From an uncultured delta proteobacterium (GTDB taxonomy: Bacteria > Desulfobacterota > Binatia > UBA9968), in NCBI GenBank assembly GCA_963760795.1, contig CAVXEP010000004.1, forward strand, positions 32,001-96,000: a stretch of 64,000 nt of DNA, given 5' to 3'. Under the pieces are notes generated by a model, which saw only the letters and a list, made by a program, of their open reading frames with translations, ran no database searches and had not been told where the DNA came from. The stretch's first letter is position 1. The number at the start of each line of letters is the position of its first letter. Made by a program: the position numbers and the translations under genes. Positions 6,260-54,237 of the stretch are shown piece by piece.

Positions 6260-6558
6260 TTCACCACGAAGGAAACGAAGATCACGAAGCTCGGATTGTT
6301 AATTTTCCCAACCCTTCGTGTCCTTCGTGGCTCCTTCGAAAATACAGGTGAGCGGATGATATCCACAACGAAGAGCCTCCGGAGTTTCCGTCATACCCGC
6401 GAAGGCGGGTATCCAGGCTACATTCGGCGCAGGATACAATACCTGGATTCCCGCGTGCGCGGGAATGACGAATCGAGGAGGGAAGCATGTTCCGGGAATG
6501 CGAACCATTTTCATGCTCTGTAGGCGAGCGCAAGCTTATGGACACTTCGTGGTGAGAT
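6260..6558. repeat. CACGAAG palindrome interrupted by a mini-element
   Basis: Left arm 6260-6289; right arm split into 6314-6330 and 6545-6555. Confidence 0.85.
6331..6546. mobile_element. Putative non-autonomous CT-core (IS110-like) mini-element, copy 1, with nested CGTC-type REP (6389-6470)
   Basis: CT-ccttcgaaaatacagg...ttttcat...atggaca-CT; first ~57 nt differ by one base from copy at 54307; same insertion point in host repeat. Confidence 0.65.
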
Positions 6559-6586: not shown

Positions 6587-7672
6587 ATGAACAACCTGCG
6601 CATCATCGACGCCGACGGCCATGTCCAGGAACGCGATGCCAACTGGCAGGAGCTACTCGATCCGCCTTATCGCAAACATGCGCCGAGCATGGTGCAGTGC
6701 GCCGATGGCCGGACGCATTTATTGCTCGAAGGTAAGATCTGGGCCAAGCCGAGCGGCAAGGGCTGCGGCATCGGCACCGCGCCGATCACGCGCAAACCGC
6801 GCACAACCACCGGCATGTGGGATCCGCTGCAGCGCCTTAAAGACATGGACATGGAAGGCATCGACACTGCGGTCAACTTCGGCACGACGGTGTTTTTAAG
6901 TCTGCCGTTTCTCGAAGATCATGACTTCGCCTGCGCCATCGCCCATGGCTATAACACCTGGCTTGCTGAGTATTCCAAGACCAATCCGAAGCGCTTGAAG
7001 GGCGTTGCGCTGGTGGCCCAGCAGGAGCCGCTGGAGGCCGCCAAGGAACTCGAACGGTGCGTTAAGCAACTGGGCTTTGTCGCCGTCGCCGTTGCCGGCC
7101 ACTCCGCCGGCCGCAACCTCGATCATCCCGACCTCTATCCGTTCTACGCCAAAGCCGAGGAGCTCGGTGTGCCGGTCTGCGTTCATGTCGGTTCGGGCCG
7201 GCCGGCGGCGGCTGCCGAGCGCTTTGACAATCCCTATTTCGTGCATGCGACCACCCACGCCTTCGAGCAAATGATCGGCGTCATGTGCATCGTCGGCGGC
7301 GGCATTCTCGAACGCTATCCAAAGCTCAAAGTCGCGTTCCTCGAAGCCGGCGCCGGCTGGGTGCCCTACTGGATGGAGCGCTTGGACGAGCATTATGAAT
7401 ATATGTCGCCGGCGGTGCCGCTGATGAAAAAACCGCCCAGCGAATACATGAAGAGCGAGCAGGTTTATTATTCCTTCGAGCCGGACGAACAGACTTTGAA
7501 TTTCGTCATGGACTACATCGGCGACGACCGCCTGGTGTTCGCCTCGGACTACAATCACGGCGACAGCAAGTTTCCCCACACAGTGGCATCCGTGACCGGG
7601 CGGAAAAATATAACCGAGAGCCAGCTGAAAAAATTGATGTGCGACAATGCGGCGCGATTGTATAACATCTAA
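6587..7672 (+). CDS. Amidohydrolase family protein (Amidohydro_2)
   Basis: IIDADGH, CVH, FLEAGAGW, FASDYNH motifs. Confidence 0.9.
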   Translation: MNNLRIIDADGHVQERDANWQELLDPPYRKHAPSMVQCADGRTHLLLEGKIWAKPSGKGCGIGTAPITRKPRTTTGMWDPLQRLKDMDMEGIDTAVNFGTTVFLSLPFLEDHDFACAIAHGYNTWLAEYSKTNPKRLKGVALVAQQEPLEAAKELERCVKQLGFVAVAVAGHSAGRNLDHPDLYPFYAKAEELGVPVCVHVGSGRPAAAAERFDNPYFVHATTHAFEQMIGVMCIVGGGILERYPKLKVAFLEAGAGWVPYWMERLDEHYEYMSPAVPLMKKPPSEYMKSEQVYYSFEPDEQTLNFVMDYIGDDRLVFASDYNHGDSKFPHTVASVTGRKNITESQLKKLMCDNAARLYNI

Positions 7673-9842: not shown

Positions 9843-11021
9843 CTATTTGATCGCTTCGGCTTTTTGCAGTTCGGCAATGCGCGCTTTGCTCAACCCGAGT
9901 ATCTCGCCAAACACCTGATCGTTATTGACGCCGATCCACGGCGCCGGCCGCGCCGCATCGGCTTGCGACAGCGATGGAATGCCGGGCAAGCCATGATGGG
10001 TAATTTTGCCCCAGGGTTGCGCCTCGGTTTCGACGATGTGTCCGCGCGCGCGCAGGTGAATGTCATGAAACAGATCTTCGCCGGAGGATGGAATCCCGGC
10101 CGCCACACCGGCTTCTTGCAGCAAACGAAAAGCTTGTTTTGCCGTATACTTGCGTGTCCACTCGGAAAGTTTTCGATCAAGCTCGACACGATGCTCCTTG
10201 CGGCCTGCTTTGCTGGCGAACTTGGCGTCGGCGGCCCAAGCAGATTTGCCGATTAAACTCGCCATGCTTTGCCATTCCTGCATCGCTGGCGCAAGCGATG
10301 ATGATCCAGTTGTCCTCGCCCGCGCATGGATAAACACCGTAAGGCGCGTAGGGTGCGCCGAGGATTTCTTCATAGCCCATGGCGTCCCACTCGTTGCCGT
10401 TGACCGTGTAGTCGAGAATCGCCGGCCCCATCATGGCGCCCTGGGCTTCGAGCATGCCGGCTTCGATGAACTGTCCTTTGCCGGTGCGCGCTTGGTATTC
10501 GAGCGCGGCGAGCACGCCGAGCGCCATGGTCACCGAGCCGACACGATCGGGCCAGGCGATCTTGCAGCGCGTCTCCATCGGCGAGTCGGGATAGCCCCAC
10601 AAGCCGCATGATGCCGGTGTAGGCCAAGCAGCTGCCAACCCCAAGCGACCCAGGTCTTGAGCGGCCCGGTCAAACCCCAACCCGGCATGACGGCTTGGAC
10701 GATGCCGGGATTGATCTGCTGCAAGACTTCGTAGGAAAACCCCAAACGCTCGACGACGCCGGAGCTAAAGTTATCGACGACGACATTTGATTTCGCGACC
10801 AGCTGTTTAAATAGTTCTTTGCCCTCGGCGTTACGCAGATTGAGCGTGGCGCCGAGCTTCGCCCGGTTCATGCAGGCGTGCACCGCCGCTTCGCGCTCCT
10901 TGCTCGGAATCGTGCCGGTCTCGATCTTGAGCACTTCCATGCCGTAGTACGCCAGCAACTCGGTACCCAAAGGCCCGGCATATTGCTGCGTCAGATCAGC
11001 CATACGCAAGCCCTTGAGCAT
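9843..11021 (-). CDS. CoA-transferase family III (CaiB/BaiF), frameshifted near 10625, 10600 and 10275
   Basis: Fragments join into one protein: LKGLRMADLTQQYAGP..., WGYPD...GKGQFIE..APYGVYPC, ...APWIG. Confidence 0.8.
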
Positions 11022-11034: not shown

Positions 11035-12240
11035 TTATCTTTGCTCTATTTTCCCGCTGTTGGCAGGCAATTTCTCAAGTTCAAGTAAAATCTCGTTGCG
11101 ATGCTGATCGAGCGTCGGCGCCGGCCGGCGCACGCGCATCGGTGTCAGCGACAGACGCATGGGCGCGCCCGGTGCTTTATATTTGCCGATCACCGGATGA
11201 TCGAGCTCCTGGATCCAATGGCGCTCAACGTTTTGTTGACAATTGACAAATTGGCCGATGGTATTGAGCGGCGCGCCGGCGAGATGATGCGCCTGGGCCT
11301 GGTTGGCGAACTCTTCGGCGCCAAACTGGCCGATGAATTCGGCGAACGCCTGCGCCACTTGGTCGGAATGCTCGTCGCGATAGCGCGGGTTCTCCCACTC
11401 CGGCCCGGCCAGCGCTTTGCTGGTCATCCAATTCTGCGCGAACTCCTTCCACATATGCGGCATGTTGGTGGTGAAGTGGACGTAGCCGCCGTCTTTGCAG
11501 CGATAGATGTTGGTGCCGGCGCCGCCGTAAGCCTTGCCGCCGGGACGCCGCTCCAAGCGGTTCTCGCGCGAATAGCGCGCCACGCTGCCGCTGTTGCAAA
11601 AGGTCAGCGCCTCTTGCAGCGACATGTCGATGCGCTGCCCCGCTCCGGTAACGCGAGCATGGCGCACGGCGGCCAACCCGAGCAGCGCCGCCATCGTCCC
11701 CGCCACCTGATAGGCGAGATGGCTCGGTGCCGTGCATTGGCCTTTGGTGTTGTCGCCCTGGCCGTAGAGAAAGCCGCCGGTCGCGTTGGCGATGGCATCG
11801 CTGCCTTTGTAATGACGATAGGGCCCGGTGCGGCCAAACGGCGTGATCGAGACGATCGCCAACTGCGGCCAGCGCGCGTGCAACGAATCGTCGGTAAAGC
11901 CGAACTTTTCCAGGTATCCAAGCGGGGTGGCTTCGACTAAAAGATTCGCCGACGCCAGCAGCTTGGCGCATACTTCGCGATCCGCCTCGCGTTCGAGATC
12001 GAGCATGATGCTGCGCTTGTTGGCGTTGGCGTTGATGAACGTCAAGCTGCGCTCAGGATCTTCGATATTGCCGGCGAACGGCGGCAGCAGCCGATTCGGA
12101 TCGCCGCCGGTTGGCTCGATCTTAATCACGTCAGCGCCAAGATCGGCCAACTGCCGCGTCGCGTAGGATGCCGGAATATCGCCCAGCTCGATCACCCGCA
12201 GATGGCCGAGCGCGGTTTCGTCGTGATTCGTGTCTGCCAA
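11035..12240 (-). CDS. CoA-transferase family III (CaiB/BaiF)
   Basis: LRVIEL, LADLGADVIKIEP, NANKRS, FGRTGPY. Confidence 0.92.
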   Translation of the reverse strand: MADTNHDETALGHLRVIELGDIPASYATRQLADLGADVIKIEPTGGDPNRLLPPFAGNIEDPERSLTFINANANKRSIMLDLEREADREVCAKLLASANLLVEATPLGYLEKFGFTDDSLHARWPQLAIVSITPFGRTGPYRHYKGSDAIANATGGFLYGQGDNTKGQCTAPSHLAYQVAGTMAALLGLAAVRHARVTGAGQRIDMSLQEALTFCNSGSVARYSRENRLERRPGGKAYGGAGTNIYRCKDGGYVHFTTNMPHMWKEFAQNWMTSKALAGPEWENPRYRDEHSDQVAQAFAEFIGQFGAEEFANQAQAHHLAGAPLNTIGQFVNCQQNVERHWIQELDHPVIGKYKAPGAPMRLSLTPMRVRRPAPTLDQHRNEILLELEKLPANSGKIEQR

Positions 12241-12276: not shown

Positions 12277-12357
12277 TCACCACGAAGGACACGAAGAGCA
12301 CGAAGTTCGGATTGCCAATCCTCCGAAACCTTCGTGTCCTTCGTGCCTTCGTGGTGA
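12277..12357. repeat. CACGAAG-family palindrome (uninterrupted, empty target site)
   Basis: tcaccacgaaggacacgaagagcacgaag ... cttcgtgtccttcgtgcCTtcgtggtga. Confidence 0.9.
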
Positions 12358-14821: not shown

Positions 14822-14836
14822 AAATTGAGTGAAACC

Positions 14837-16280
14837 ATGAGCGAAGCTGTTTCAAACATCCGTCCTGAACCGGACAAGATATTAACTGACCTTGCCGATT
14901 ACGCGACGAGTTACGTCGCCACCAGCCGCGAAGCCATCGACACGGCGCGTTATGATTTAATCGATACCTTGGGCTGCGGCTTGCTGGCGCTGCGCTTTCC
15001 CGAATGCGCCAAGCATCTCGGTCCGGTGGTTCCCGGCGCGACGTTGACCAACGGCGCCCGGGTGCCGGGCACCGATTGGCAGTTGGATCCCGTGCACGCG
15101 GCGTTTAACATCGGCGCGATGATCCGCTGGCTCGACTACAACGATACCTGGCTCGCCGCCGAGTGGGGCCATCCGTCGGACAACTTGGGCGGCATCCTCG
15201 CCCTCGCCGACTACCTCACCCGCGCCAAGCAAAAATCTTTCACCGTCGCCGACGTCTTGCAGGCGATGATCAAGGCCCATGAAATTCAAGGCATCCTGGC
15301 GTTGGAGAATAGCTACAACCGCGTCGGTCTCGATCACGTCCTGCTGGTCCGCGTCGCCACCAGCGCCATCGCCACGGCGATGCTCGGCGGCACGCACGGG
15401 ACAAATCGTCAGCGCGCTATCCAACGCCTGGACCGACGGCGGCGCCCTGCGCGTCTACCGCCATGCGCCCAACACCGGGCCAAGAAAATCCTGGGCCGCC
15501 GGCGACGCCACCAGCCGCGGCGTGCGCTTGGCGCTGATGGCGCGGCAAGGCGAGATGGGCTATCCGTCGGTGCTCACGGCCAAGAGCTGGGGCTACTATG
15601 ATGTCCTATTCAAAGGCAAGCCGTTCACCATGGGCCGGCCGCTGGGCTCCTACGTGATGGAAAATGTTTTGTTCAAAATTTCTTTCCCCGCCGAGTTTCA
15701 CGCCCAGACCGCCGTCGAGTGCGCCGTGCAGCTGCATGAGCAAGTGAAGCAGCGCCTCGACCAGATCGACAAAGTCATCATCACCACCCAAGAGTCGGCG
15801 ATCCGTATCATCGACAAGTCCGGACCATTGCACAATCCCGCCGACCGCGATCATTGCATCCAATACATGACCGCCATCGGCTTGATCTTCGGTGCACTCA
15901 CCGCCGATCACTACGAAGACAAGATCGCCCGCGATCCGCGCATCGATTCGTTACGCGAAAAGATGACCTGCGTCGAAGATCCGCGCTATACGAAGGAATA
16001 TCTCGACGCCGACAAGCGCTCCATCGCCAACGCCGTGCAAGTTTTCTTCAAAGACGGCAGCAGCACCGACAAAGTCGCCGTCGAATACCCCATCGGCCAC
16101 CGCCGCCGCCGCGCCGAAGGCATGCCGCTGTTGGTGAAAAAGTTCGAGGCTAATCTCGGCTCACGTTTCGCGCCAGAGCAGTGCCAAGCGATTATGAAAT
16201 TGTGCAACGATCCGAAATCACTCGATGCCACACCGGTAGACAAATTCACAGATATGTTCGCGACCGGATCAGCGAAATAA
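14837..16280 (+). CDS. prpD: 2-methylcitrate dehydratase, one frameshift near 15398
   Basis: [20 protein letters not shown]; second frame [34 protein letters not shown]. Confidence 0.9.
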
Positions 16281-16405: not shown

Positions 16406-17287
16406 ATGAATCCAAGACAAACCCTCAAACAACTGCTAAAGCGCAACAAACTCCTCGTCGCTCCCGGCTGTTTCGACGGCCTATCCGCCCGGCTCGTCCA
16501 GGAAGCCGGCTTCGAAGCCGCCTACTTGAGCGGCGGCGCCGTCGCCCGCAGCATGGGGATTCCCGATATCGGCCTGGTGACGATGTCGGAATCGATCGAC
16601 CGCGCCGTGCAAGTCGTCGCCGCAATCAACATTCCGATCATCGCCGATGCCGACACCGGTTACGGCAATGCGGTCAATCTGGTGCGCAGCGTGCGCGAGT
16701 TCGAACGCGCCGGCGTCGCGGCGATCCATATCGAAGACCAGATCACGCCCAAACGCTGCGGCCACCTGGACGGCAAAGAAGTTATTTCGCTGTCCGAGAT
16801 GGCGAAAAAGCTCGAAGCGGCTCTGGCGACGCGCACCGATCCCGACTTCTGCATCATCGCCCGCACCGACGCCCGCGGCGTCAACGGCTTCGACGACGCG
16901 GTCAAACGCGCCAATGCGTTTGCCAAGTTGGGCGTCGACGCGATCTTTTTCGAAGCGCCACAGTCCGAAGATGAACTCGCCGAAATCCCCCAGCGGGTGC
17001 CAAACATCCCGCTCTTGGTCAACGTCTTCAAAGGCGGCAAGACGCCGATGCTGCCGATGGAACGGCTGGAACAAATGGGCTACCGCATCGCCATCTATCC
17101 GTCAGAAACCCAACGCGCCGCCATCCACGCCATGCGCACGGCGCTGAGCACGCTCAAACGCGAAGGCACGACGGAATCCATCGACGCAGCGCTGACGACA
17201 TTCAAAGACCGCGACAAAGTCGTCGGCCTGGACGATTGGAATAAGATCGAGCGGGACTATATGGCTGTGGAAACCGGCAAAGATTAA
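16406..17287 (+). CDS. prpB: 2-methylisocitrate lyase / ICL-PEP mutase family
   Basis: DADTGYG, IEDQITPKRCGH, IIARTDA; follows prpCD. Confidence 0.8.
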   Translation: MNPRQTLKQLLKRNKLLVAPGCFDGLSARLVQEAGFEAAYLSGGAVARSMGIPDIGLVTMSESIDRAVQVVAAINIPIIADADTGYGNAVNLVRSVREFERAGVAAIHIEDQITPKRCGHLDGKEVISLSEMAKKLEAALATRTDPDFCIIARTDARGVNGFDDAVKRANAFAKLGVDAIFFEAPQSEDELAEIPQRVPNIPLLVNVFKGGKTPMLPMERLEQMGYRIAIYPSETQRAAIHAMRTALSTLKREGTTESIDAALTTFKDRDKVVGLDDWNKIERDYMAVETGKD

Positions 17288-17291: not shown

Positions 17292-17567
17292 CCCTCGGCT
17301 CGAAGCCGAGGGAGTTTGTTGCGTTGACTCGAAGTCGACTTTCGCTTTTTCGTCTTTCCGCGAAAGCATGTCCTGAGCGATGCCGAAGGGCGGGAATCCA
17401 GGTGACCGACCGCGTCCGTCATCCGTTGAAAAACGGTATCCAGATTCTCGGGATGGGGATGGACCCCGGTTTTCACCGGGTGACGATAGCGCCGGCATGA
17501 CGGAACTCCCGTCGCCTTAAGCACGTCCTGAGCTTAGCCTGTGCTGAGCTTAACCGAAGGATCGAAG
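17292..17567. repeat. Cluster of nested REP-like elements
   Basis: ccctcggc-tcgaa-gccgaggg hairpin; CGTC-type REP interrupted by catgtcctgagcgatgccgaaggg; tggaccccggttttcaccgggtgacg...gccggcatgacgg shared with 48931 and 27925. Confidence 0.75.
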
Positions 17568-17659: not shown

Positions 17660-18623
17660 CTATTTGATTACTTTATCCGCCTTCATCAACGTCCACTGCG
17701 GAATCGTCAGGCCAATTTGCTTCGCGGTCTTGAGATTGATCACAAAGTCAAATTTCGTCGGTTGCTCGACCGGCAGGTCGGCGGGTTTGGTACCTTTGAG
17801 TATTTTATCGACGAATGTCGCGGCGCGGCGAAAAATCGCAAGGTCGTTGGCGGAGTAGGACATCAGTCCGCCATTCTCGACCCAGTGCTGCCTTCGAACA
17901 TCGACGGCAGGCGGTGCTTGATGGCAAGATCGGCGATCCGCTTGAGTTACGAAAGAGCGGACTGTTGGTAATCGTGATGACGGCGCGCGCGTTGCCTTTG
18001 CGCGCGGCTTGGAATGCCCCTTCCAGGTCCGGGTCGCCCGGCCTCGCGCACTAATCGAGATCGACCCATATTCTTGAAACCAGCCACCGACACCGCCTCT
18101 TCCGCGTCCGCAGGATGCCGACGCGCGCTAACCGCGGCACCACCTCGGCAAGCAACTCCAGACGCTTTCCACTCAGCTCTCGCTGAAGCGTAGTGAGCCC
18201 GGTAACATTTCCACCGGGGTGCGCCAAGCTGTCGACCAACCCGGTCGCAACTGGGTCCACTTGAGTCACCATGACAATCGGGATCGTTTTGGTCGCCTGC
18301 TTAGCGGCGCGGATCGCTGACGAAGTGGCAGGACCAGGACATCGACCTTGAGTTGGATGAGCTCGGCAACCAGGCTTGGCACCGGCTCCGCCTTTCCGGC
18401 AGCGCCACGAAATTCGATGGCAAAGTTTTTACCCTCGATGTATCCCAGATCGCGCAGCCCTTGGCGCAACGCCGCGACGTATGGCCCTTGATTCGAAGCA
18501 TCGCCGGTTCCTGACAAGTAGCCGATGCGTGGGATCTTTGCTCTGATGGCTGAGCCTGGGCAAAAGTAGATGGTTCCCAGAACGACAGTCGTCACGCAGC
18601 CACAAACCGATTCTTCCCTTCAA
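17660..18623 (-). pseudogene. Degraded PF04392/K01989-type ABC substrate-binding protein
   Basis: Fragments KIPRIGYL, DPVATGLVDSLAHPGGNVTG, KILKGTKPADLPVEQPTKF in different frames; many indels. Confidence 0.8.
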
Positions 18624-18669
18624 CCTTTGCCTCCGTTCATTTTGCCGTTTGCCCTTTTTACTTTTGCCT

Positions 18670-19734
18670 TTACCGAATTACCTTTTTCGCCCGCGCCAGC
18701 ACATTCGGTGGGATCGTCACGCCGAGCTGTTTGGCGGTGACGAGATTAAACGCCAGCTCAACGTCATCGACGGTGTCGATTCTCAGCTCGGCCGGCGGCG
18801 TGCCACTGAGCACGCGCTGGACGTACTTCGCCGAGCGCCGGCCGATCTCGAAATAGCTCTGGCCGTAGCTCGCCAGCGCACCGCGCGCCACCACCACCTG
18901 ATCGTGAAACATCGTCGGCAGTCGCTTCGCCCGCGCCACTTCGACGATGCGCGGCGCTTGGCTCACCACCATGGGATCGGGCATATACAAGTAGGCGTCG
19001 AACTCGCCGGCCTTGAGCGCGTCGAGGGCGCCGTTTATTTCGTCGATCGATTTCACCTGGCGTTCGGCCAGCTTGATGTTCATGCGTTGCGCTTCCGCGC
19101 GCCCCAACTTGAACCCTTCGACGGCGATCGTGTTGCTGGGATCGTAAAAGGCCACGACCTGGCGCAGCTTGGGCAGAAACTCTTTGAGAATCTCCAAACG
19201 TTTGCCGGTGAGATCGCGCGCCAAATACTGAATGCCGGTGAGCCGCCCCCCCGGTTGGCCAAAGGATTTGGCGAAACCACTGGCGACCGGATCGCTGCCC
19301 ACCGCAAAGACGATGGGAATATTCTTGGTCGCTTTGAACGCGTCACCGGTAATCGGTGTCGTGTTGGTAAATATCAGCTTGACCTTTTCGCGCTCCAAGG
19401 TCTCGGCGACGCCTTGCGCCGACTTCAAATCGCCCTTGAGATCATGGACATCGAGGATGAACTGTTTGCCATCTTGCAGGCCCAACTCTTTCAACCCAGC
19501 GCGCAGGCCATCCACCAGCGTCGCAAAGACTTCGCCCAAGTGGATGACCCCGATGCGCTCAGGCTTCGCCGGCTGAGCCTCGACCAACGCCCCACCGAAA
19601 GCTAATGTCAAAGCGAGAGTGACAATCCCCACCCATTTTGCTCCGCGGGGAAGCCTTTGGTCTGCGGGGCCGCTTTTAGATTTCCGATTAGCTGAGGAAT
19701 AAGTCAAAAAAGGATTCAGCGATATTTCGTACAT
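18670..19734 (-). CDS. PF04392/K01989-type ABC substrate-binding protein
   Basis: PIVF...DPVASG...PGGRLTG, KRLEILKE, NLVTAKQLGVTIPPNVLARA. Confidence 0.9.
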   Translation of the reverse strand: MYEISLNPFLTYSSANRKSKSGPADQRLPRGAKWVGIVTLALTLAFGGALVEAQPAKPERIGVIHLGEVFATLVDGLRAGLKELGLQDGKQFILDVHDLKGDLKSAQGVAETLEREKVKLIFTNTTPITGDAFKATKNIPIVFAVGSDPVASGFAKSFGQPGGRLTGIQYLARDLTGKRLEILKEFLPKLRQVVAFYDPSNTIAVEGFKLGRAEAQRMNIKLAERQVKSIDEINGALDALKAGEFDAYLYMPDPMVVSQAPRIVEVARAKRLPTMFHDQVVVARGALASYGQSYFEIGRRSAKYVQRVLSGTPPAELRIDTVDDVELAFNLVTAKQLGVTIPPNVLARAKKVIR

Positions 19735-19770
19735 GAGTTTTTCCTCAATCCCCAATCCAAAATCTAAAAT

Positions 19771-20754
19771 TTATCTGATGACCCGATCCGCCCGCACCAG
19801 CACATTGGGCGGGATCGTCAGGCCGATCTGCTTGGCGGCTTTCAGGTTGACGATGAACTCGAACTTGATCGGCTGTTCCACGGGGAGATCGGCGGGCTTT
19901 GTGCCTTTTAGAATCTTATCCACATAGGTGGCGGCACGGCGAAACAAATCGGGAGTGTTAGTGCCGTAGTATATGAGGCCGCCGGCTTCCATAAATTCCG
20001 ATTGTGGGTATATCGCCGGGAGCCGGCTCGTTACCGCGAAATCTACCAGCTGTTTTCGGTGCGAAGTGAGTACTGCGTTCTCCAGCACTAGGACAGCATC
20101 AGCGCGCTCCTTGTTTGCGGCGCGGTATGCAGTCTCGATATCCTTGACATCTCGTACGTCTGAGTATTGAAGCTGCACAGCCAGTGCCCCAGCGGCGAGT
20201 TGCATCTCTTTTAACGCTTGTGCGTTGCCCGGATGGGTCGAGTTGCCGAACACCGCCACACGCGCGAGTCTCGGAATGATCTCCTTCAGAAGCTCCAGTT
20301 GCTTGCCGCTTATCTCCGGGTAGAGGGTAGACAATCCAGTAATGTTGCTGCCAGGCCGCGCAAGGCTGGCGACGAACCCGTTGCCGACAGGATCGTTATC
20401 AAACGCCATGACGATGGGAATCGCAATAGTTGCTGCCTTGGCGGCACGGGTCGATTGCGGACCACCCGAGACGATGAGGTCTACCTTGAGGCGCACTAAT
20501 TCAGCCGCAAGCGCGGCGATGCGATCAAGTTTTCCCTCTGCCGAACGCCACTCGACAACAACGTTCTTCCCTTCCACGTACCCAAGTTCGCGCAGACCCT
20601 GCAAGAAGGCCTCGATGCGGGTCGCGTTAGCGGAAAGGGAGGGCGTAGTCAAGTATCCGATCCGAGGGATTTTCGTCGGCTGCTGCGCTTCGGCGGCAAA
20701 GCACGGAGCAAGGAGTAACGAGCATAGAGCAAGGCCAACAATTTTGTTAGTCAA
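19771..20754 (-). CDS. PF04392/K01989-type ABC substrate-binding protein
   Basis: KIPRIGYL, LRELGYVEGKN, SLARPGSNITG, KPADLPVEQP. Confidence 0.92.
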   Translation of the reverse strand: MTNKIVGLALCSLLLAPCFAAEAQQPTKIPRIGYLTTPSLSANATRIEAFLQGLRELGYVEGKNVVVEWRSAEGKLDRIAALAAELVRLKVDLIVSGGPQSTRAAKAATIAIPIVMAFDNDPVGNGFVASLARPGSNITGLSTLYPEISGKQLELLKEIIPRLARVAVFGNSTHPGNAQALKEMQLAAGALAVQLQYSDVRDVKDIETAYRAANKERADAVLVLENAVLTSHRKQLVDFAVTSRLPAIYPQSEFMEAGGLIYYGTNTPDLFRRAATYVDKILKGTKPADLPVEQPIKFEFIVNLKAAKQIGLTIPPNVLVRADRVIR

Positions 20755-20803
20755 GGCGTATTCCCTTCTTCGCTGACATCCGCCTGCTGATCTCTGACTT
20801 CTG

Positions 20804-21778
20804 TCATCGGATCACCCGATCCGCCCGCACCAGCACGTTGGGCGGGACCGTCAGGCCGATTTGTTTCGCCGCGTTAAGATTGATGACCAGCTCGAACTTT
20901 GTCGGCCGTTCCACGGGAATGTCCATCGGTTTGGTGCCTTTGAGAATCTTGTCGACGTGCACCGCAGCGCGGTGTGCCATCTCGGCCATGTTTGGACCGT
21001 AGGACATTAAACCGCCATCGGGAGCCCAGGAGCCCCAGTCGCCGACCAGCGGTATGCGACTCTTTGCCGCGTAATCCAAAATGCGTTGTCGTTGGAAATT
21101 AATAAGTCTTGACGAGACGACAATGAGGGCCTGAGATTTCGCCTTCGTGGCGGCATCGAATTGGCCGTCGAAGTCCTCGCCTCGCCGGACTTGCAGCGAT
21201 TGCAACCGTACTTTCATTGCCTGAGCCGCGCTTTGAATTTCACGAAACTCGGGATCGGCGTGATCGGGATTCCACAGCACCGCCACTCGAGAAATTCTCG
21301 GCGCGATTTCTTTTAATAGCTCCAATCTTTTCCCCGCCAATTCGTCGAGAATAAGCGTGATGCCGGTAATGTTGCCGCCAGGATGGGCCAGGCTGGCGAC
21401 AATCCCCGATTGCACCGGATCGTTGCTCACCCACATGACGATCGGAATCGTCTTGGTTGCTTTCTGCGCTGCCGGCACGACATCGCCGCCGAGGGCAAGA
21501 ATTACATCGGGATTGAGCCGCGCCAGTTCGGCGGCAACTTCCGTAAGCCGATCGGGTTTGCCGCCAGCGAAACGGTATTCCACCGATAGATTTTTCCCCT
21601 CAGTGTAACCGAGGTCGCGCATGTTTTGGCGAAAAGCTGCAACGTTCGGGTCGTTTTCCGGCGTGCTATAAAGGAGCACGCCTACGCGTGGTATTTTTGC
21701 CGGCTGTTGCGCCTGGGCAAATGAAACAGTTGTTAGAAATAAACCCGCCAGTAGCCTGATCGCCATTTTGTAATTCAT
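20804..21778 (-). CDS. PF04392/K01989-type ABC substrate-binding protein
   Basis: KIPRVGVL, SLAHPGGNITG, ERPTKFELVINL. Confidence 0.92.
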   Translation of the reverse strand: MNYKMAIRLLAGLFLTTVSFAQAQQPAKIPRVGVLLYSTPENDPNVAAFRQNMRDLGYTEGKNLSVEYRFAGGKPDRLTEVAAELARLNPDVILALGGDVVPAAQKATKTIPIVMWVSNDPVQSGIVASLAHPGGNITGITLILDELAGKRLELLKEIAPRISRVAVLWNPDHADPEFREIQSAAQAMKVRLQSLQVRRGEDFDGQFDAATKAKSQALIVVSSRLINFQRQRILDYAAKSRIPLVGDWGSWAPDGGLMSYGPNMAEMAHRAAVHVDKILKGTKPMDIPVERPTKFELVINLNAAKQIGLTVPPNVLVRADRVIR

Positions 21779-21822
21779 GTCATGTCTCCGTTCATTTTGC
21801 TTTTTTCATTTTTACTTTTACC

Positions 21823-21921
21823 TTATCGAATCACCCGATCCGCCCGCACCAGCACATTCGGCGGGATCGTCAGGCCGATCTGCTTGGCGGTTTTCAGATT
21901 AATTATGAACTCGAATTTCGT
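21823..21921 (-). pseudogene. Orphan 3' end (32 codons) of a PF04392 SBP gene
   Basis: Translates [32 protein letters not shown]; no upstream coding part. Confidence 0.88.
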
Positions 21922-22000
21922 CTGACGATTAAGCCGGCTCAGATCAACTCGTTATGCACTGAGGAGACTACACTTCCGCCGTCTCCTCGGCTGTTATAAC

Positions 22001-22015
22001 GCAGGAGCAATGCCA
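22001..22015 (-). promoter_or_regulatory. Candidate sigma54 (-24/-12) promoter facing the SBP array
   Basis: Minus strand TGGCATTGCTCCTGC with GG-N10-GC spacing. Confidence 0.55.
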
Positions 22016-22117
22016 CAAGCGACTCATCCATTAGTATTCCTAGTAAGCTGAATTCACAAAGAAATTCTTTCACGGGACGATAGCACCGGGCGAGCGGAAA
22101 AGAACGACGAGTAGTCG

Positions 22118-22148
22118 TTTTGCTACTCGGTGTAGCAAAAATGCGACA
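22118..22148. promoter_or_regulatory. Candidate enhancer-binding protein site (UAS)
   Basis: ttttgctac-N5-gtagcaaaa palindrome overlapping TGT-N12-ACA, ~105-135 bp upstream of the sigma54-like motif. Confidence 0.5.
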
Positions 22149-22177
22149 CCCAACTTGGTCGGGCTAAGAAGAAGTTA

Positions 22178-22360
22178 CTCCCGCCAAGGCGCAAAGACGC
22201 TAAGTGACAGGCCAGAGGCCTGTCATCCCGAGCGAATGCGAGGGATCTAATGCAGGATTTCTCTCTCCGTTCGAAATGACAACATTCACCCTTTGCGCCT
22301 TGCGCCTTTGCGAGAGATATTCCGATTTATTTTTGTGGCCTTTGCGTTCTTTGCGGCCAA
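22178..22360. repeat. CGCAAAG-family palindrome with TGTCAT-type REP (22221-22281) nested in its loop
   Basis: cgccaaggcgcaaagacgc ... tgtcatcccgagcgaatgcgagggatct...cgaaatgaca ... ctttgcgccttgcgcctttgcg; ctttgcgttctttgcggcc. Confidence 0.8.
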
Positions 22361-22380
22361 ATCTCCGAGTCCGATTCTCT

Positions 22381-24141
22381 TCATTGATTACGCCGCAACT
22401 CTGCGGTCGCCGCGCTGTCGAGCTCGAACCGCCGTCCGTCTTGCCGGATCGCCACGCCATAGTCGCGCCGCGCCGCTTCGACGGAAACGTAACCCGAACG
22501 GACATCGACCAGCACTTTCTCCGCCGGGCGCTCGAACGCGCTCCAGAATCCGCCGCCACCACCGGTTTCGATCGTGAAGCTGTCGCCGTTGTCGATTTCG
22601 CTGGGCTTGATTTTGCCCGTCGGAAAGGTCTCCACCGCGCCGTTGTTATGGCTGACGAAGATTTGATTCGCCAGCGCGTCTTTGCCGCCGTGCAAGCCCC
22701 AGGGCGCGCAGATCGTCCGCTCGACATGAGCGTGGATGGTCGCCGGGCGGCGCATGCGCACTTCGTTTGACACTCCCAGGCCGCCGCGAAACTTGCCTGC
22801 GCCGCCGGAGTCTTGGCGCAGCTCGCGATGCTCGACGATGATGGGATTTTTCGCTTCGGTGGCTTCCACCGGCGCGTTATGGGTGTCGCCGTCGTTGAGA
22901 CACACCGTCGCGTTCATGCCGTCTTCATCGTGCTTGGCGCCCCAGCCGCCGCCGGGATGGCCGATGTGGGACCAGAAAAAACGCCCGGTCTCGGCATCGA
23001 AGCCATGGGGATTGACCGTGCATAGATCGGCGTAGTGGCCGGCGATGGTGCGCTCGGGACAGGCCGGCGCGAGGGCGCGAAAAAGCGTATCGCACACGGT
23101 CATCGGCACGGTCATCCAGACCCGCACCGGCGCCGGCTTGACGGCGCTGATGACCCGGCCAAGGGGCAGTATAATTTTTAACGGCCGAAACGAACCATCG
23201 TTGATCGGCAGCAACATGGGCGTGGTAATGCACTTGAAAACCACTTCGGCAGCGGAGCGGCCCGCCGTGATACCCGAATTATAGTATCCCGCCACCTGCG
23301 GGCTCACATTGCTCAAGTCGATGGTCATCTCATCGTCTTTGACCTCGACGCGCACGCGGATCGGGATATGTTTGCCGAGATTGACGCCGTCGTCGTCCAT
23401 GAACGACTCGGCCTCATAGACGCCGTCGGGGATCTGGCGCACAGCCGCGCGGGCGAGTTTCTCGCTTTGTTGGTAAATCGACTGAATGCTGTCTTTGAAA
23501 ACCTTATTGCCGTAGCGCCGTAAGATATTCAGGACACGCCGCTCGCCGGTGCGGATCGATGCGAGCTGGGCGCGCATATCGCCCATGGCGCTTGCGGGCA
23601 CGCGCACGTTGGCCTTGATAATTGCGGTGATCTCGGGATTTTCCACGCCCTGGCGAAAATGCTTCACGAAAGGCATCTGCAACCCTTCGGAGAAAATATC
23701 CCGGGTCACCCCGCCTAGCTGCCCGCCGATATCCTGCCAGTGCGCCATCGACGAGGAGTACGCCACCAATTCGCCGTCGTGAAAAATCGGCAGCGTGTAG
23801 ATCATGTGGTTGAGATGGCTGCCCATGATGTAGCTGTCGTTGGTGAGCAAGATATCTCCGGGATGAATATTGTCTTTGCCCCAGTGAGCGATCTTCGCCT
23901 TGATCGCATCCGACAACCCACGGACAAACATCGGCAAGCCAAGGCCGATGGAAATGGTATTGCCATCAGCATCGAACAGTCCGACGGTGAAATCCTCAGC
24001 TTCGTAGATGATCGTGTGATACGCCGTGCGCATCAGGTTGGTTTTCATCTCGCCGGTGATCGCGACCAGCGCGCTACGGATCACCTCGGTCGTAAAAGCA
24101 TCAACCTCGCTACGCGAGGTATTCAAAATTAAAGATTCCAT
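22381..24141 (-). CDS. Hydantoinase B/oxoprolinase family protein
   Basis: GDILLTND..GSHLNH, AHWQDIGG, DSGGAGKFRGG. Confidence 0.92.
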   Translation of the reverse strand: MESLILNTSRSEVDAFTTEVIRSALVAITGEMKTNLMRTAYHTIIYEAEDFTVGLFDADGNTISIGLGLPMFVRGLSDAIKAKIAHWGKDNIHPGDILLTNDSYIMGSHLNHMIYTLPIFHDGELVAYSSSMAHWQDIGGQLGGVTRDIFSEGLQMPFVKHFRQGVENPEITAIIKANVRVPASAMGDMRAQLASIRTGERRVLNILRRYGNKVFKDSIQSIYQQSEKLARAAVRQIPDGVYEAESFMDDDGVNLGKHIPIRVRVEVKDDEMTIDLSNVSPQVAGYYNSGITAGRSAAEVVFKCITTPMLLPINDGSFRPLKIILPLGRVISAVKPAPVRVWMTVPMTVCDTLFRALAPACPERTIAGHYADLCTVNPHGFDAETGRFFWSHIGHPGGGWGAKHDEDGMNATVCLNDGDTHNAPVEATEAKNPIIVEHRELRQDSGGAGKFRGGLGVSNEVRMRRPATIHAHVERTICAPWGLHGGKDALANQIFVSHNNGAVETFPTGKIKPSEIDNGDSFTIETGGGGGFWSAFERPAEKVLVDVRSGYVSVEAARRDYGVAIRQDGRRFELDSAATAELRRNQ

Positions 24142-24224
24142 ATTCCAAACTCGATTTGCGAAGTTGATCCTGCTCCGGCATGCGTAATCCGATAATTTGG
24201 AATCTGAAATTTGGAATCTGAAAT
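24134..24224. repeat. GGAAT-family heptamer palindrome
   Basis: attccatattccaaa ... aatttggaatctgaaatttggaatctgaaat. Confidence 0.75.
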
Positions 24225-26282
24225 CATTCAGCCCCTCCCAGTTCCATCACCAGATGGCCATACTCATTCACCGTCACCCGATCCCCCGGCTCGACCACCG
24301 TCGTCGACGCCACCTCTTCGATGATCGCCGGGCCGTGGATGACGTTGCCTTGGAGTAATTGGTCGCGATCGAACACCGGCGCCGACATGGCACCGGCGGC
24401 ATCGAAGTTCACCGTGCGCTCGCCGCGTCGCGCCACGGCCGGCGGTGCTGCCTCTCCTTTGGCGATCTGCGGAAACACCGGCTTATTCAACCGGCCGATC
24501 GCCGACACGCGCAGGCTGACGATATCGGCGGACTCTTCCGGCGCGCTGTGGCTATAGCGCAAATCATGGGCTTCGTCGAAGCGCCGCTTCACTTCGGCGC
24601 GGGCGCGCTTCATCGCCGACGGCGGCGGGCATGCCGACGGCCACCGCATGTTCCTGGCCGACATAGCGCATGTCGGCGGCGCGTTCGAAGGCGATGCGAT
24701 CCAGGGCGATGCCGGAGTCGAGCAATGCCTTGCGGCCTTCGTCTTCCAATGCTTTGAACTGCGCTTCCAACTCGCTCATCGCCAAATCATCCAAGCGCTC
24801 GAACAGCGTCTGGACATAATCGCGGCGCAGGTCGGCCATGAGCATGCCGAGAGCTGAGAAATGACCCGGCGCTTGGGGAATGATGATCTTGCTGATGGAC
24901 AATTCCTTGGCAACCGAAGCCGAATGCAGCGGCCCGCCGCCGCCGTAGGCGACCAGTGTGAAGTCGCGCGGATCGAGACCGCGCTCCAGTGTCACATGGC
25001 GCACGGCGTTGGCCATCGCCGAGGTCGCCACTTGCAACATGCCGGCGGCGGCACGCTCCAGCGTGACGTTGAGCGGCTGGGCAAGTTTTTCGTTCAACGC
25101 CGCTTCCGCCGCGCCGCGATCGAGACGCATCTCGCCGCCAAGAAAGTTTTCCGGCGATAACCGCCCGAGAATCACGTTGGCGTCGGTCACCGTCGGTTCG
25201 CTGCCGCCGCGGCCATAGCTTGCCGGTCCCGGCTCGGCGCCGGCGCTCTTCGGCCCGACATGCAACCCGCCGCCTTCGTCGAGAAAAGCGATGCTGCCGC
25301 CGCCGGTGCCGACCTCGACGATGTCGAGGACTGGAATACGAATCGCCAAACCTTCGTTGTAGCCGCCGATAAAATAATCCGGCGACAGGCTCGGCTCGCC
25401 GCGCCGAATCACGCAGGCCTTGGCCGTCGTGCCGCCCATGTCGAAGGCGATGGCCGCTGCGAGATCGAGGGTCTCGCACAGCGCCATGGTGCCGACCACA
25501 CCGCCGGCCGGTCCCGACTCCATCATTTGAATGCATTGGCGGCGCGCCATCTCGACATCCGACAGGCCGCCGTTGGACTGCATGATCATCAAATTGCCGG
25601 CGAACTTGTTTTGCTTTAAGCGGCGCTCGAGATCGCCGAGATACTGGCTAACTATTGGGCCGACGTAGGCATTGGCCGCCACGGTGGAAGTGCGCTCGTA
25701 CTCGCGATACTCGCGCGACAGTTCATGCGACACGCTGACAAAGAGATTGGGCTCGGTTTCGAGCAGGATATCGCGCATGCGGATCTCATGCTCCGGCGCC
25801 CGATAGGAGTGTAAAAACAGCACCGCGACCGCTGCGAAACCTTCGTCCTTGATAATGCGCGCCACCGCGCGCGCCTCTTTTTCATCGAAGGGCGTGCGCA
25901 CCGAGCCGTCGGCGAGCATGCGCTCGGTCACTTCGAAAATATCTTCCCGCGCCACCAGCGGCCGGTGCTTGCGAAAGCGCGGGTTGAACGACTCCGGCCG
26001 GTTGATCCGGCCGATCTCGTACACATCGCGAAACCCTTTAGTCGTCACCAGCGCAGTCTTCGCGCCCTGGCGCTCGATGATCGCGTTGACGACCACGGTG
26101 GAGCCATGAATCAACGTCGTCATCTCGTCAAAGCGCACCGCCGCTTTGACCAAGCCATCGAGCACGCCCCGCGCCAGCTCCGCCGGCGTCGACAACGTCT
26201 TCGCCAACGACAGATCGCTTTTAGCCTCGTCGAATACCACCACGTCGGTAAACGTCCCGCCGATATCAACTGCTACGCGCAT
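24224..26282 (-). CDS. Hydantoinase A/oxoprolinase family protein, frameshift near 24605
   Basis: VDIGGTFTD, SGPAGG, DMGGTT, GTGGGS, YGGGGPLH; C-terminus GPAIIEE...TTVV in another frame. Confidence 0.9.
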
Positions 26283-26296
26283 TTCTTCGCTCCGCT

Positions 26297-26422
26297 CAGA
26301 ATTCCAAATTACACATTTCAAATTACAGAATTAAGTACTCAATCAGCATCCACAGATCGATCTACGCATCAGTCCCATTCACCACTCTGATAATCTGCAA
26401 TGTGGAATTTGGAATCTGTAAT
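26297..26422. repeat. GGAAT-family palindrome
   Basis: attccaaattacacatt pairs with aatgtggaatttggaat. Confidence 0.75.
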
Positions 26423-30253: not shown

Positions 30254-30353
30254 GGGCGGGTTTGAAACTCGCCCCTACGAATCCCAATTCCTTTTTGCGC
30301 CCTTTGCGTTCTTTGCGGCCATTCTTCTTTCCACTTGCGGCTCCGCTGCGCTC
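30254..30353. repeat. Composite GTAG-type REP + CGCAAAG arm (inverted partner of 29071-29180)
   Basis: gggcgggtttgaaactcgcccctacgaatccc...ctttgcgttctttgcggccattcttcttt. Confidence 0.85.
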
Positions 30354-32115: not shown

Positions 32116-33099
32116 ATGAAATTCTGGCTCGCATCATTGCTCGCAACCTTAATTCTAGCATCGTCCGCACAGGCACAAACCCTCGATCAACTGATCGCCG
32201 GCGCCAAGAACGAAGGCAAGCTGGTAATCTACGCCTCCGCCGCGGCCCAGCAGCTGCAGATGTACATGGCCGCCTTCGGCAAACGCTACCCATTTATCAA
32301 GACCGAATACTTCCGCACCGACAAACAGAAACTGGTCACCCGCGTTCTCCTGGAAGAGCAAGCCAAGCAGCGCCTGGCCGACGTGGTTCACACCAGCGTC
32401 ATCGAAACCCATATCTTGAAAAAGCGCGGCGCGCTGAGCCGCTACCTGCCGATGGAAGCGGCGTCCTACCCGAGCCAATACAAAGACCCCGAAGGTTACT
32501 GGACTTCGGTTTACGCCAGCGGCACGCTGATGGGCTTCAACACCCGCCAGGTCAAGCGCGCCGAAGCGCCGAAGAGCTACGACGACCTCTTGAACCCGCG
32601 CTGGAAGAACGCCATCGCCGTCGACAACACCAAGATCGAATGGTTCTCCATGCTGCTCAAGCTCAAGGGCCGCGGATTTATGGAAAAACTCGCGGCGCAA
32701 AACGGACCGGTGATGGCCGGTAATACCAATTTGCTTAATCTGCTCGCCGCCGGCGAGTTCGCCATCATGGCCGGAGTGTACGAGTACTCCGTCGATAATT
32801 TGAAGAACAAAGGCGCGCCGGTGGACTGGATCGGCCTCGAACCGGTGATCGTCTACACCGTCGCCGCTTCGTTGCCATCGCAACCGGCCCATCCTTTCGC
32901 CGCCAAGCTGTTCATCGAATGGCTGCTCACCAAGGAAGGCCAGGACGTGATCAATCAATACGGCCGCGTTCCCATCCGTGACGACATCGACTCGAAATAC
33001 GGCAGGCTTTTAAAGCAACACAAACTACTCATGACCGACGTCGACCTGAGCCAACGCGAAGTCGAAGTCAACGAGATGATCCGGAAGTTGTTCCGGTGA
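32116..33099 (+). CDS. ABC substrate-binding protein (Fe3+-type)
   Basis: GGAGG RBS, signal peptide, AKNEGKLVIY, KGAPVDW, AHPFAAKLF. Confidence 0.88.
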   Translation: MKFWLASLLATLILASSAQAQTLDQLIAGAKNEGKLVIYASAAAQQLQMYMAAFGKRYPFIKTEYFRTDKQKLVTRVLLEEQAKQRLADVVHTSVIETHILKKRGALSRYLPMEAASYPSQYKDPEGYWTSVYASGTLMGFNTRQVKRAEAPKSYDDLLNPRWKNAIAVDNTKIEWFSMLLKLKGRGFMEKLAAQNGPVMAGNTNLLNLLAAGEFAIMAGVYEYSVDNLKNKGAPVDWIGLEPVIVYTVAASLPSQPAHPFAAKLFIEWLLTKEGQDVINQYGRVPIRDDIDSKYGRLLKQHKLLMTDVDLSQREVEVNEMIRKLFR

Positions 33100-33102
33100 A
33101 TT

Positions 33103-33201
33103 CTTTTGTGCCCTTTGCGTTCTTTGCGGCCAAACTCCCCATTCCGAACCAGGCCGGTCCCGACCGACCTACTTTGTGAACTTTGTGCTCTTTGTGGTGA
33201 A
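33103..33201. repeat. CTTTGCG/CTTTGTG repeat arms
   Basis: ctttgcgttctttgcggcc; ctttgtgaactttgtgctctttgtggtgaa. Confidence 0.75.
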
Positions 33202-41047: not shown

Positions 41048-41120
41048 GGAGGGCGACCACAGGGGCGACCCCCTACAGTTCGGATTCCCTTTTGTGAACT
41101 TTGCGTTCTTTGCGGCCAAT
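41048..41120. repeat. Composite GTAG-type REP + CTTTGCG arm
   Basis: gggcgaccacaggggcgaccccctac...ctttgcgttctttgcggcc. Confidence 0.75.
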
Positions 41121-41152
41121 CATCCGAATCCGTTTCATCTTGGTACAAAAAC

Positions 41153-44344: not shown

Positions 44345-44464
44345 TTGGCCGCAAAGAACACATAGAACTCAAAGAATGATTGCCGGATTGTCGGGGCCGG
44401 TTTTAAACCCGCCCCCGACGATTCTGCATTTCTTTATTGTGAACTTTGCGTCCTTTGCGGCTAA
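44345..44464. repeat. CGCAAAG palindrome with GTAG-like REP nested in loop
   Basis: ggccgcaaagaac...gtcggggccggttttaaacccgcccccgac...ctttgcgtcctttgcggc. Confidence 0.8.
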
Positions 44465-48884: not shown

Positions 48885-48975
48885 CGTCATACCGGCGCAG
48901 GCCGGTATCCAGGTTGAGGGGTATGGCGGATGGACCCCGGTTTTCACCGGGGTGACGACAAAGCCGGCATGACGG
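48885..48975. repeat. CGTC-type REP doublet with nested copy
   Basis: cgtcataccggcgcaggccggtatccag ... tggaccccggttttcaccggggtgacg..gccggcatgacgg. Confidence 0.85.
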
Positions 48976-49057
48976 AATGGGACGCGGGCGAATTGAGGTT
49001 TAGATTTTTGAAACCCTCGGCATAGCGGTCAAAACAAATCAAGTCGGAGGAATACTA

Positions 49058-51783: not shown

Positions 51784-51893
51784 CCGTCATTTCCGCGAAC
51801 GCGGAAATCCAGGTGCGGACCATGTCCGTCATACAGTGAAAACGGTATCCAGATGATGATCGGTCTGGATTCCCGTTTGCACGGGAATGACGG
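51784..51893. repeat. CGTC-type REP cluster
   Basis: ccgtcatttccgcgaacgcggaaatccag ... ctggattcccgtttgcacgggaatgacgg. Confidence 0.85.
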
Positions 51894-51959
51894 AGAAAGA
51901 AGGATGTGCGGTGTTTGTCGATCTTGAGGCAGGAAATCTACCATCGAATAGTCGATCAA

Positions 51960-54147: not shown

Positions 54148-54237
54148 CTTCGCGACCTCGTACCGTTCGCATAACCTGTTTACCCCAGCCTGTCAAAACA
54201 TCGTGGCACAAGCCGCCTAAAGAACTCAATGACTTAG

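Follow-up and report, generated by a model that had tools for sequence, protein, structure and literature searches.

A 3' Gene Remnant Heading a Tandem Array of PF04392 Substrate-Binding-Protein Genes Is Probably the Leftover of a Lost Copy

Introduction

The closest described counterparts of the locus reported here are tandem paralog families, which evolve by unequal crossing-over and segmental conversion, under birth-and-death or concerted evolution. In these families the copies lie on the same strand, copy number and order differ, chimeric genes occur, exchange is limited to the most conserved segments, and dead copies and fragments remain in the array. All of these features are shared by a tandem array of genes for secreted substrate-binding proteins of family PF04392 (ABC_sub_bind), found in a stretch of 64,000 nucleotides (nt; contig CAVXEP010000004.1 of assembly GCA_963760795.1, positions 32,001 to 96,000; hereafter the window) from a soil bacterium akin to metagenome-assembled genomes (MAGs) labelled Binatia or delta proteobacterium. 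The array consists of four same-strand copies (g1 to g4 in order of transcription), the most distal of which is degraded, and is headed by the orphan 3' end of a fifth copy, referred to here as the stub. It differs from the described families in that only the ends of the genes (approximately the first 18 and the last 54 codons, with the linker) appear to be exchanged while the ligand-binding body is inherited vertically, in that the switch between the two is step-like, and in that stubs seem to outlive the remainder of the dead gene. We consider that the stub is probably the leftover of a lost fifth copy, in an array whose gene ends are swapped by ordinary homologous recombination and not by an integron-like machine.

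Other systems share some of these features. In contact-dependent inhibition and Rhs loci, orphan toxin C-terminal modules are 5'-truncated ends lying beside a full-length gene, with homology that permits recombination, and they carry a variable functional domain and an immunity gene downstream of that homology. In contrast, the PF04392 stub holds the conserved segment alone, and recombination through it would therefore leave protein sequences essentially as they were. In loci related to the window, the succession of a full gene, an inserted module and a displaced 3' fragment recalls integrative elements bounded by attL and attR, which insert at the 3' end of a gene and duplicate it. In these loci, however, the fragment is usually no repeat of the upstream gene's end, its length varies and no integrase was seen among the reading frames scanned, while the stub in the window is without any upstream gene.

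Sedentary chromosomal integrons (IntI, attI, attC) resemble the arrays of this family in their long, one-directional runs of short units, their interspersed toxin-antitoxin modules and the presence of one boundary element more than there are genes. The present locus differs in having no integrase among the scanned open reading frames (ORFs), no attC-like palindrome or fold and no fixed crossover point; its repeated segment is protein-conserved coding sequence and its units are paralogs of one family, not unrelated genes. In the available part of one study of sedentary chromosomal integrons (PMC13108822), promoter-containing toxin-antitoxin cassettes are presented as key to controlling cassette excision. 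An earlier reading of the window, made without database searches and called here the sequence-only reading, had taken the surplus of one 3' end over the number of genes as the footprint of integration or excision, and had proposed that the 3' end may act as an attachment or recombination site in an integron-like system. This interpretation was partly supported by the analysis presented below. The portions of the literature available to us on PF04392/ABC_sub_bind, on Binatia/Binatota and on toxin-antitoxin modules with tandem paralogs or remnants gave no description of such arrays or stubs.

Results

Identity and Inheritance of the Stub

Related arrays were collected by a scan of one genome per species, which gave 73 loci, most of them metagenome assemblies (for the greater part MAGs with such titles as Binatia, delta proteobacterium or Syntrophobacteraceae). 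A family profile of 324 columns was built from 172 full-length copies and used in a six-frame search of these loci and the window, with hits chained. Pfam, tblastn and profile searches bore out the four tandem paralogs, the last degraded, and the additional 3' end without a 5' part that the sequence-only reading had described. The stub matched just the last 36 of the 324 profile positions and is therefore a fragment and not a member gene; no family similarity was found upstream of it beyond 21918-21922. It cannot be translated, with a stop lying 10 codons upstream and no ATG, GTG or TTG in the open frame. When aligned in register from the stop codon, its 99 nt were identical to g2 at 87 positions, to g1 at 80, to g3 at 71 and to g4 at 69.

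The two identities given in the sequence-only reading proved exact: the best 58-nt window against g2 contained 57 matches (21833-21890), and the longest exact run against g1 was 26 nt (21830-21855). Of 160 intact genes compared, the best match to the stub was g2, a gene of its own array. Of 676 within-assembly gene pairs, 0.15% had at most one mismatch in that tract, as did none of 12,044 different-assembly pairs (median 14 mismatches). Genes of other MAGs did come within 3-4 mismatches of the stub, and the excess similarity to g2 is for this reason modest.

A syntenic MAG locus, L020, located on a contig of 1,009,144 nt, allowed the age of the stub to be assessed. Amino acid identity between this locus and the window was 96% for HyuA, 81% for HyuB, 96% for PrpB, 91% for g1 and 88% for g3. 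L020 carries a stub (6858-6968) at the same position, with the same breakpoint and the same 5' junction sequence, and the stub was thus inherited and is older than the split of the two genomes. The recurrence of stub and junction in an independently assembled record also makes it extremely unlikely that the stub or the mosaic structure of the array is a mis-join at a repeated segment, even though the material is metagenome-assembled and conserved blocks of 26-31 nt exist; the step-like pattern described below was likewise found between loci L002 and L009, on contigs of 58,101 and 1,058,753 nt.

The window stub and its L020 copy (6870-6968) were identical at 82 of 99 positions without gaps. The adjoining intergenic DNA was 78% identical, with 46 gap columns, and functional 3' ends were 85-98% identical. 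In the L020 copy, residues that are conserved elsewhere have been replaced non-conservatively (P to L, VIR to ETR), whereas the window stub still encodes the family-consensus peptide. These observations bear on the explanation that the stub is a plain neutral relic, which persists as it is short and wedged against the start of the next gene and which resembles g2 through shared ancestry without any conversion. The shared breakpoint, a rate of change near that of intergenic DNA (83% versus 78% identity) and the similarity to genes of other MAGs all suit such a relic. It accounts less well for a window stub which retains consensus peptide and stop codon and has no indel, despite 22% differences and the 46 gap columns nearby, with all visible decay in the L020 copy; nor does it lead one to expect the closest gene in the same array, or the changes of partner documented below for the 3' ends of live genes. 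On balance we regard the plain relic as unlikely, although it deserves to be kept in view.

Divergence of Gene Ends and Bodies

Nine genes (A to I) lie behind the stub in L020, compared with four in the window. When the two arrays were compared segment by segment, the bodies of g1, g2 and g3 corresponded to those of F, E and H, respectively, with 48-59 of 60 nt identical per segment. The linker and the first 60 nt of g1 to g3 were not orthologous in this sense: the head of g1 resembled those of A and B, the head of g3 that of F, and the head of g2 none. The last 120 nt of g2 were nearer to gene A (58/60) than to E (54/60), and nearer to the stub as well. The F-like body precedes the E-like body in the window while E precedes F in L020; given this order and the differing gene counts, the arrays are neither collinear nor simply nested, and the variation in array order anticipated by the sequence-only reading was thus observed. 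The joints of array rearrangement fell at the conserved head and end of the genes, and the ends did not track the bodies.

The same separation was measured across the family using 18 reciprocal-best ortholog pairs with body identity of at least 0.82, a number limited by the use of one genome per species. At identical residues, codon identity between orthologs was 0.78-0.83 in 13 of 14 bins of columns 19-270 (0.70 in the remaining bin, 127-144), and fell to 0.58-0.61 in columns 271-324, the last 54 codons, where residue identity was still 0.87-0.93. In the first 18 columns it was 0.54. The end was below the body in all 18 pairs (Wilcoxon p = 7.6e-6; pooled counts 2867/3636 versus 514/867, Fisher p = 1e-30). 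A same-assembly paralog was closer than the ortholog for the end of 19 of 35 genes and for the head of 19 of 34, as compared with 1-3 of 35 for each of three control segments. In a single alignment of L002 with L009, counted by hand, identity was 94% over 256 nt and 72% over the last 167 nt, followed by unrelated linkers. A first test of paralogs against orthologs had suffered from synonymous-site saturation in distant pairs, and this analysis of close ortholog pairs took its place.

The loss of synonymous identity between orthologs in the last 54 codons indicates that the conserved ends recombine among paralogs. Ends and bodies therefore have different histories, most simply explained if paralogs recombine or convert one another where they are still similar enough to pair, which is in these segments only. 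As in other tandem arrays, related genomes differed in copy number and order and carried chimeric genes, and orthologous signal was lost only in segments conserved among paralogs.

Among diverged paralogs, the proportion of identical codons at identical residues was approximately 0.40 in the body and 0.55 over the last 34 codons, an elevation which the sequence-only reading had expected. Local homogenization was considered as its cause and rejected, with pairs from different assemblies giving nearly the same value. Codon choice in the last 34 codons was position-specifically uniform across the family (excess homozygosity 0.18 versus 0.09, p = 0.005).

Survey of Related Arrays

The census of the 73 loci and the window yielded 170 intact copies, 40 that were full-length but broken and 35 cut by the ends of the loci, together with 34 3' fragments (24 of which start at column 247 or beyond), six 5' fragments and one internal fragment. 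Ten further weak matches were to the last 12-22 profile columns. Orphan ends are therefore not rare, with 24 strong and 10 weak examples beside 210 full-length copies. The sequence-only reading had asked whether they recur at array heads; their frequency was about the same inside arrays, with 6 strong and 2 weak stubs at 50 heads, 15 and 7 at 161 internal units, and 2 and 1 at 35 tails. Their breakpoints were scattered over profile columns 247-313, or approximately 65 codons (34 stubs). No stub exceeded about 78 codons, which matches the extent of the exchanging segment.

Detection was assessed using pieces cut from real genes. Pieces of 20 amino acids were found in 98% of cases when taken from the 3' end and in 0% when taken from the 5' end; for 5' pieces detection was 0% at 20 amino acids or fewer and 45% at 30, and reached parity with 3' pieces only at about 60. 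Among pieces of at least 60 amino acids the 5' and 3' kinds were about equally numerous. The surplus of short over long 3' stubs is real. Tiny copies of about the last 16 codons were also present (L047 5901-5948, L013 19463-19510, L021 9832-9882), placed 32-35 nt past the stop of a full gene and 73-106 nt ahead of the next gene, as if a paralog had been deleted to its tip.

In 23 stubs, differences from the nearest intact gene were distributed over codon positions 1, 2 and 3 as 136/100/280 (54% at third positions), as compared with 435/211/1395 (68%) among intact genes (chi-square p = 2e-10). This pattern is one of relaxed constraint and fits fragments decaying between overwriting events. Relaxed constraint is equally what a plain relic would show, short terminal fragments being the expected last survivors of random internal deletions, and much of the 3' excess is explained by the detection bias.

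With respect to a possible function, the stub might serve as a 5' leader providing transcript start, stability or translation signals that are usually supplied by the upstream neighbor. In keeping with this, a family gene begins 53-170 nt downstream of 16 of the 24 short stubs, a spacing usual for linkers, and in the window a terminator-like hairpin closes the hyu operon, such that the array needs its own start within 21780-22107; the uniform codon choice of the gene ends is also compatible with a role at the nucleotide level. Transcription presumably starts in 21922-22107, the approximately 190 nt between hairpin and stub, which are about 78% conserved with L020. Neither similarity to the family nor a consensus promoter was found in the intergenic region upstream of the stub, Rfam gave no match there (nor for the whole window at the gathering score, nor for 21700-22400 at E up to 1), and the predicted RNA fold of stub and linker was no better than shuffled sequence (z = -0.41). 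For seven of the 24 short stubs, the next 1 kb downstream holds no family gene; decay is seen in the L020 copy, and orthologs diverge faster, not slower, at synonymous sites in this segment. A functional stub is in our judgement improbable.

Gaps of 0.5-2.6 kb within arrays numbered 51. In 17 of these the gap was followed by a stub, and 13 of the 17 contained toxin-antitoxin-type ORFs, in either orientation, with the stub directly downstream of the module; such ORFs were present in 14 of the other 34 gaps (27 of 51 in total). The paired small ORFs are predicted type II modules of several families: PIN/PIN_3 with AF2212-like or PhdYeFM, PemK with MazE or RHH, DUF433/DUF5615, DUF4160/DUF2442, DUF4258/DUF2283 and Gp49/HTH_37. 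A 5' relic of the disrupted gene was also detectable in three cases (L008, L012, L047), showing that the module had replaced the middle of the gene. Some modules, such as the PemK modules of L022, L023 and L030, are flanked by shared orthologs, and insertion events are therefore fewer than the counts. Array span (298 kb) contained 41 toxin-antitoxin ORFs. In the flanks (607 kb with 355 small ORFs), a random sample of 150 small ORFs contained 5; the resulting enrichment of approximately six- to seven-fold is rough, since ORFs hidden beneath antisense frames may have escaped the scan of the flanks. A phmmer comparison of arrays and flanks with the in-array toxin-antitoxin proteins was biased by self-hits and gives only a lower bound. 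ORFs of about 200-265 amino acids in the array gaps, at first a candidate unknown family, proved to be antisense frames over toxin-antitoxin genes. No toxin-antitoxin module was present in the window's own array. AAA_14/DUF4143 ATPase genes lie within arrays at three loci (L038 4415-5566, L057 1594-2778, L069 1486-2544).

Tests for an Attachment Site

The locus failed every integron feature that was tested. No recombinase domain was found among the 53 ORFs of at least 150 amino acids in the window, which upholds, for ORFs of this size, the observation of the sequence-only reading that none is present. Single-strand DNA folds of the five junctions on both strands, ten in all, did not surpass shuffled sequence in stability (z from -1.07 to +0.49), and four of the five junction linkers held no inverted repeat. 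In 25 stubs with an upstream gene, a displaced 3' fragment that is a direct repeat of that gene's end was looked for; the upstream end ranked first or second among 238 ends in only 4, and identity to it was mostly near the median of all ends. A fixed crossover point was not indicated by the positions of the stub starts. The last 20 codons were considered as an exceptional hairpin and rejected (-17.2 to -17.4 kcal/mol versus -15.1 ± 2.0 for all gene windows, others reaching -20).

Linkers made of short degenerate tandem oligo-repeats such as GATTTTNGATTTT, AGGCAAYAG and CAGNGAGCAG directly follow the stop codons in the window, where they are 44-132 nt long, and at 123 junctions in the related loci, with an inverted copy added in long linkers. 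The sequence-only reading had described them as one-arm repeats; in the window only the linker between g2 and g3 has an inverted second arm (19674-19689 / 19754-19769). The linker after the stub is homologous to that after g3 (81% over 31 nt, or 81% over 122 nt when the 3' end is included).

An array of cassettes whose 3' segment is the att site of a recombinase encoded elsewhere, with the head stub as primary site, would be in accord with the N+1 arrangement, the single orientation and short linkers, the variation of array content between relatives and the interspersed toxin-antitoxin modules, which in the available part of PMC13108822 are likewise a feature of chromosomal integrons. It is nevertheless very improbable here. 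Apart from the absence of a tyrosine recombinase among the scanned window ORFs and the unremarkable folds and linkers, the junction is inherited, as L020 shows, the breakpoints are spread, and heads are not enriched in stubs, so that N+1 ends do not stand as a footprint of integration or excision. Exchange at the 5' motif would also be left unexplained by a 3' att site. What remains of the proposal is that the 3' end is a place of recombination, where paralogs recombine and arrays are rearranged between relatives; an att site or dedicated recombinase found no support in these tests.

Array Layout and Other Features of the Window

The coordinates of the array and its surroundings are presented in Table 1. 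Along the direction of transcription the order is the terminator-like hairpin, about 190 nt, the 99-nt stub, the 44-nt linker, g1, g2, the 132-nt linker, g3 and g4, with hyuA/hyuB (hydantoinase A and B) on one side of the array and a convergent gene of the PEP-mutase/isocitrate-lyase family on the other.

Table 1. Coordinates of the stub, the array and associated features (positions in the window unless a locus is named).
Feature	Position	Strand	Remarks
hyuA	24564-26321		
hyuB	22381-24141		
Intergenic region upstream of stub	21922-22380	minus	78% identical to L020; dispersed short repeat copy at 22320-22377
Terminator-like hairpin, then T-rich run	22108-22129	minus	Between hyuB and stub; conserved in L020
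Stub, orphan 3' end of lost PF04392 paralog	21823-21921	minus	99 nt; 32 codons + stop; no 5' part
Linker stub-g1	21779-21822	minus	44 nt; A-rich, GGAG ahead of g1 start; homologous to linker after g3
g1, intact PF04392 substrate-binding protein	20804-21778	minus	324 amino acids; Pfam match 167.4 bits
Linker g1-g2	20755-20803	minus	
g2, intact PF04392 protein	19771-20754	minus	327 amino acids; Pfam match 187.9 bits
Linker g2-g3	19639-19770	minus	132 nt; two inverted arms of short intergenic repeat
g3, intact divergent PF04392 protein	18670-19638	minus	Open frame extends to 19755; Pfam match 187.5 bits
Linker g3-g4	18599-18669	minus	
g4, degraded PF04392 pseudogene	17660-18598	minus	Frameshifts and internal loss
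PEP-mutase/isocitrate-lyase-family gene	16406-17287		Called PrpB from context; convergent to array
Toxin-antitoxin modules in related arrays (examples)	L033 8438-9323; L045 760-1343; L047 8499-8995; L034 3210-3897; L024 14173-14867; L040 13065-13448		

The products of g1, g2 and g3 are full-length matches above the curated PF04392 cut-off of 25.9 bits, with the alignment of g3 to the family profile beginning at 19638. Identity is 50% between g1 and g2, and 34% between g3 and each of these two. g4 is found in three frame pieces (profile 5-95, 95-171 and 246-324) with degenerate sequence between them, and its L020 counterpart is likewise broken. No further family copy was found in the 64 kb by tblastn, apart from a fragment at 21826-21933, which is the stub. 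Solved structural relatives of PF04392 proteins are 3lkv, 3lft and 6hni. Relatives of g2, at up to 95% identity, number in the thousands in soil metagenomes, with one named match from a Candidatus Binatia MAG. The window encodes at least 14 substrate-binding proteins in five Pfam groups (SBP_bac_1/6/8/11, NMT1, SBP_bac_5, Phosphonate-bd, PF04392); among the 53 scanned ORFs, neither ABC permease nor ATPase was detected.

Short dispersed intergenic repeats of 30-70 nt were found in several families. One includes the region above the stub (22320-22377, 30282-30339, 33093-33150, 41079-41136, 44424-44481); the others are at 6261-6332, 12277-12348 and 54237-54308, at 6436-6483, 51858-51905 and 54406-54453, and at 17464-17505 and 48936-48977. 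A 14-nt direct repeat flanking the array (17482-17495 / 22076-22089) was considered as a target duplication and dropped: the copy at 17.5 kb is part of a dispersed intergenic repeat that recurs at 48936-48977, and a degenerate pattern search gave one site. A scan of the window for tRNA and tmRNA genes gave none.

Several other genes of the window appear broken or duplicated. The hyuA open frame is 585 amino acids in the window and 685 in L020 (2497-4554), and a 146-amino-acid frame (24224-24664) overlapping its end suggests a frameshift near 24600. An MmgE/PrpD-family gene (14825-16280) is split into overlapping frames (14825-15601 and 15279-16280) by a frameshift or sequencing error. A family III CoA-transferase gene (9843-11021) survives as two fragments (profile 247-364 and 1-135) with the middle gone, and an intact paralog adjoins it at 11035-12240. 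Two Rieske/LigXa-type oxygenase paralogs (47696-48850 and 50304-51437) are 2.6 kb apart and share blocks of about 160 nt in which nucleotide identity is 71-73%.

Discussion

Taken together, the data favor a stub that is a pseudogene relic, probably refreshed by gene conversion. The body of its parent paralog was lost, presumably by illegitimate deletion, before the genomes of the window and L020 diverged, as indicated by their common breakpoint. Paralogs of this family are often destroyed, frequently by toxin-antitoxin modules landing in them, as is evident in the related loci though not in the window. Only in the last 54 or so codons do diverged paralogs remain alike to the degree that homologous recombination requires, and, as the synonymous sites show, these codons have been repeatedly exchanged among copies. 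The 3' end of a dead gene may accordingly be overwritten from live copies and stay recognizable while the remainder decays, and the 57 of 58 nt shared with g2 may be a trace of such overwriting. Crossovers, plausibly of the RecA type, at the conserved 3' segment and at a conserved motif just after the signal peptide would alter copy number and re-pair bodies with junction segments, a junction segment being the 3' end, the linker and the signal-peptide head. The four genes here and nine in L020 display the pattern expected of such crossovers, for which an order of events may only be suggested. No site-specific recombinase is needed.

A number of observations weigh against this interpretation. 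Some of the broken genes may be sequencing errors, as the loci are largely metagenome assemblies. The excess of 3' over 5' stubs is partly a detection effect, because short 5' stubs are mostly invisible to the profile. Codon identity of paralog 3' ends within a locus (0.553) was barely above that between different assemblies (0.533), so that conversion does not homogenize the copies of a genome; we assume that the large number of paralogs explains this. The ortholog pairs were chosen on columns 31-270, which slightly favors the body in the comparison with the end. The tract shared with g2 could reflect shared subtype ancestry, given that genes of other MAGs differ from the stub by only 3-4 nt. 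Lastly, the window stub adjoins no toxin-antitoxin module or insert, and the loss of its parent gene thus lacks a visible cause.

A more ambitious picture, which we hold to be doubtful, treats the gene architecture as a cassette system that works without a recombinase. The body (approximately codons 19-270) would be the cassette and the junction segment (the last 54 codons, the linker with its ribosome-binding site and the signal-peptide head) a portable adaptor, conserved in part because it would allow RecA-type recombination to insert, remove and re-pair bodies, and also non-family inserts such as toxin-antitoxin modules, inside one array or from one array to another. Stubs, whether at heads or internal, would be free adaptors able to take up a body, and nested toxin-antitoxin modules would protect the recombination-prone arrays from collapse, as in chromosomal integrons.

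Recombination of gene ends among paralogs, with stubs as leftovers, takes the place of the attractive but unsupported idea of a new integron and offers a testable account of the expansion and rearrangement of very large families of orphan substrate-binding proteins in uncultured soil bacteria, with bodies inherited, ends swapped and stubs left behind. If the step-like loss of orthology at the ends is true, phylogenies and ortholog calls for PF04392 should leave out the ends, and recurrent 3' stubs are to be anticipated in genome annotation. Under the same condition, the strong nesting of toxin-antitoxin modules within these arrays would provide a natural, integrase-free parallel to the stabilizing role proposed for such modules in chromosomal integrons.

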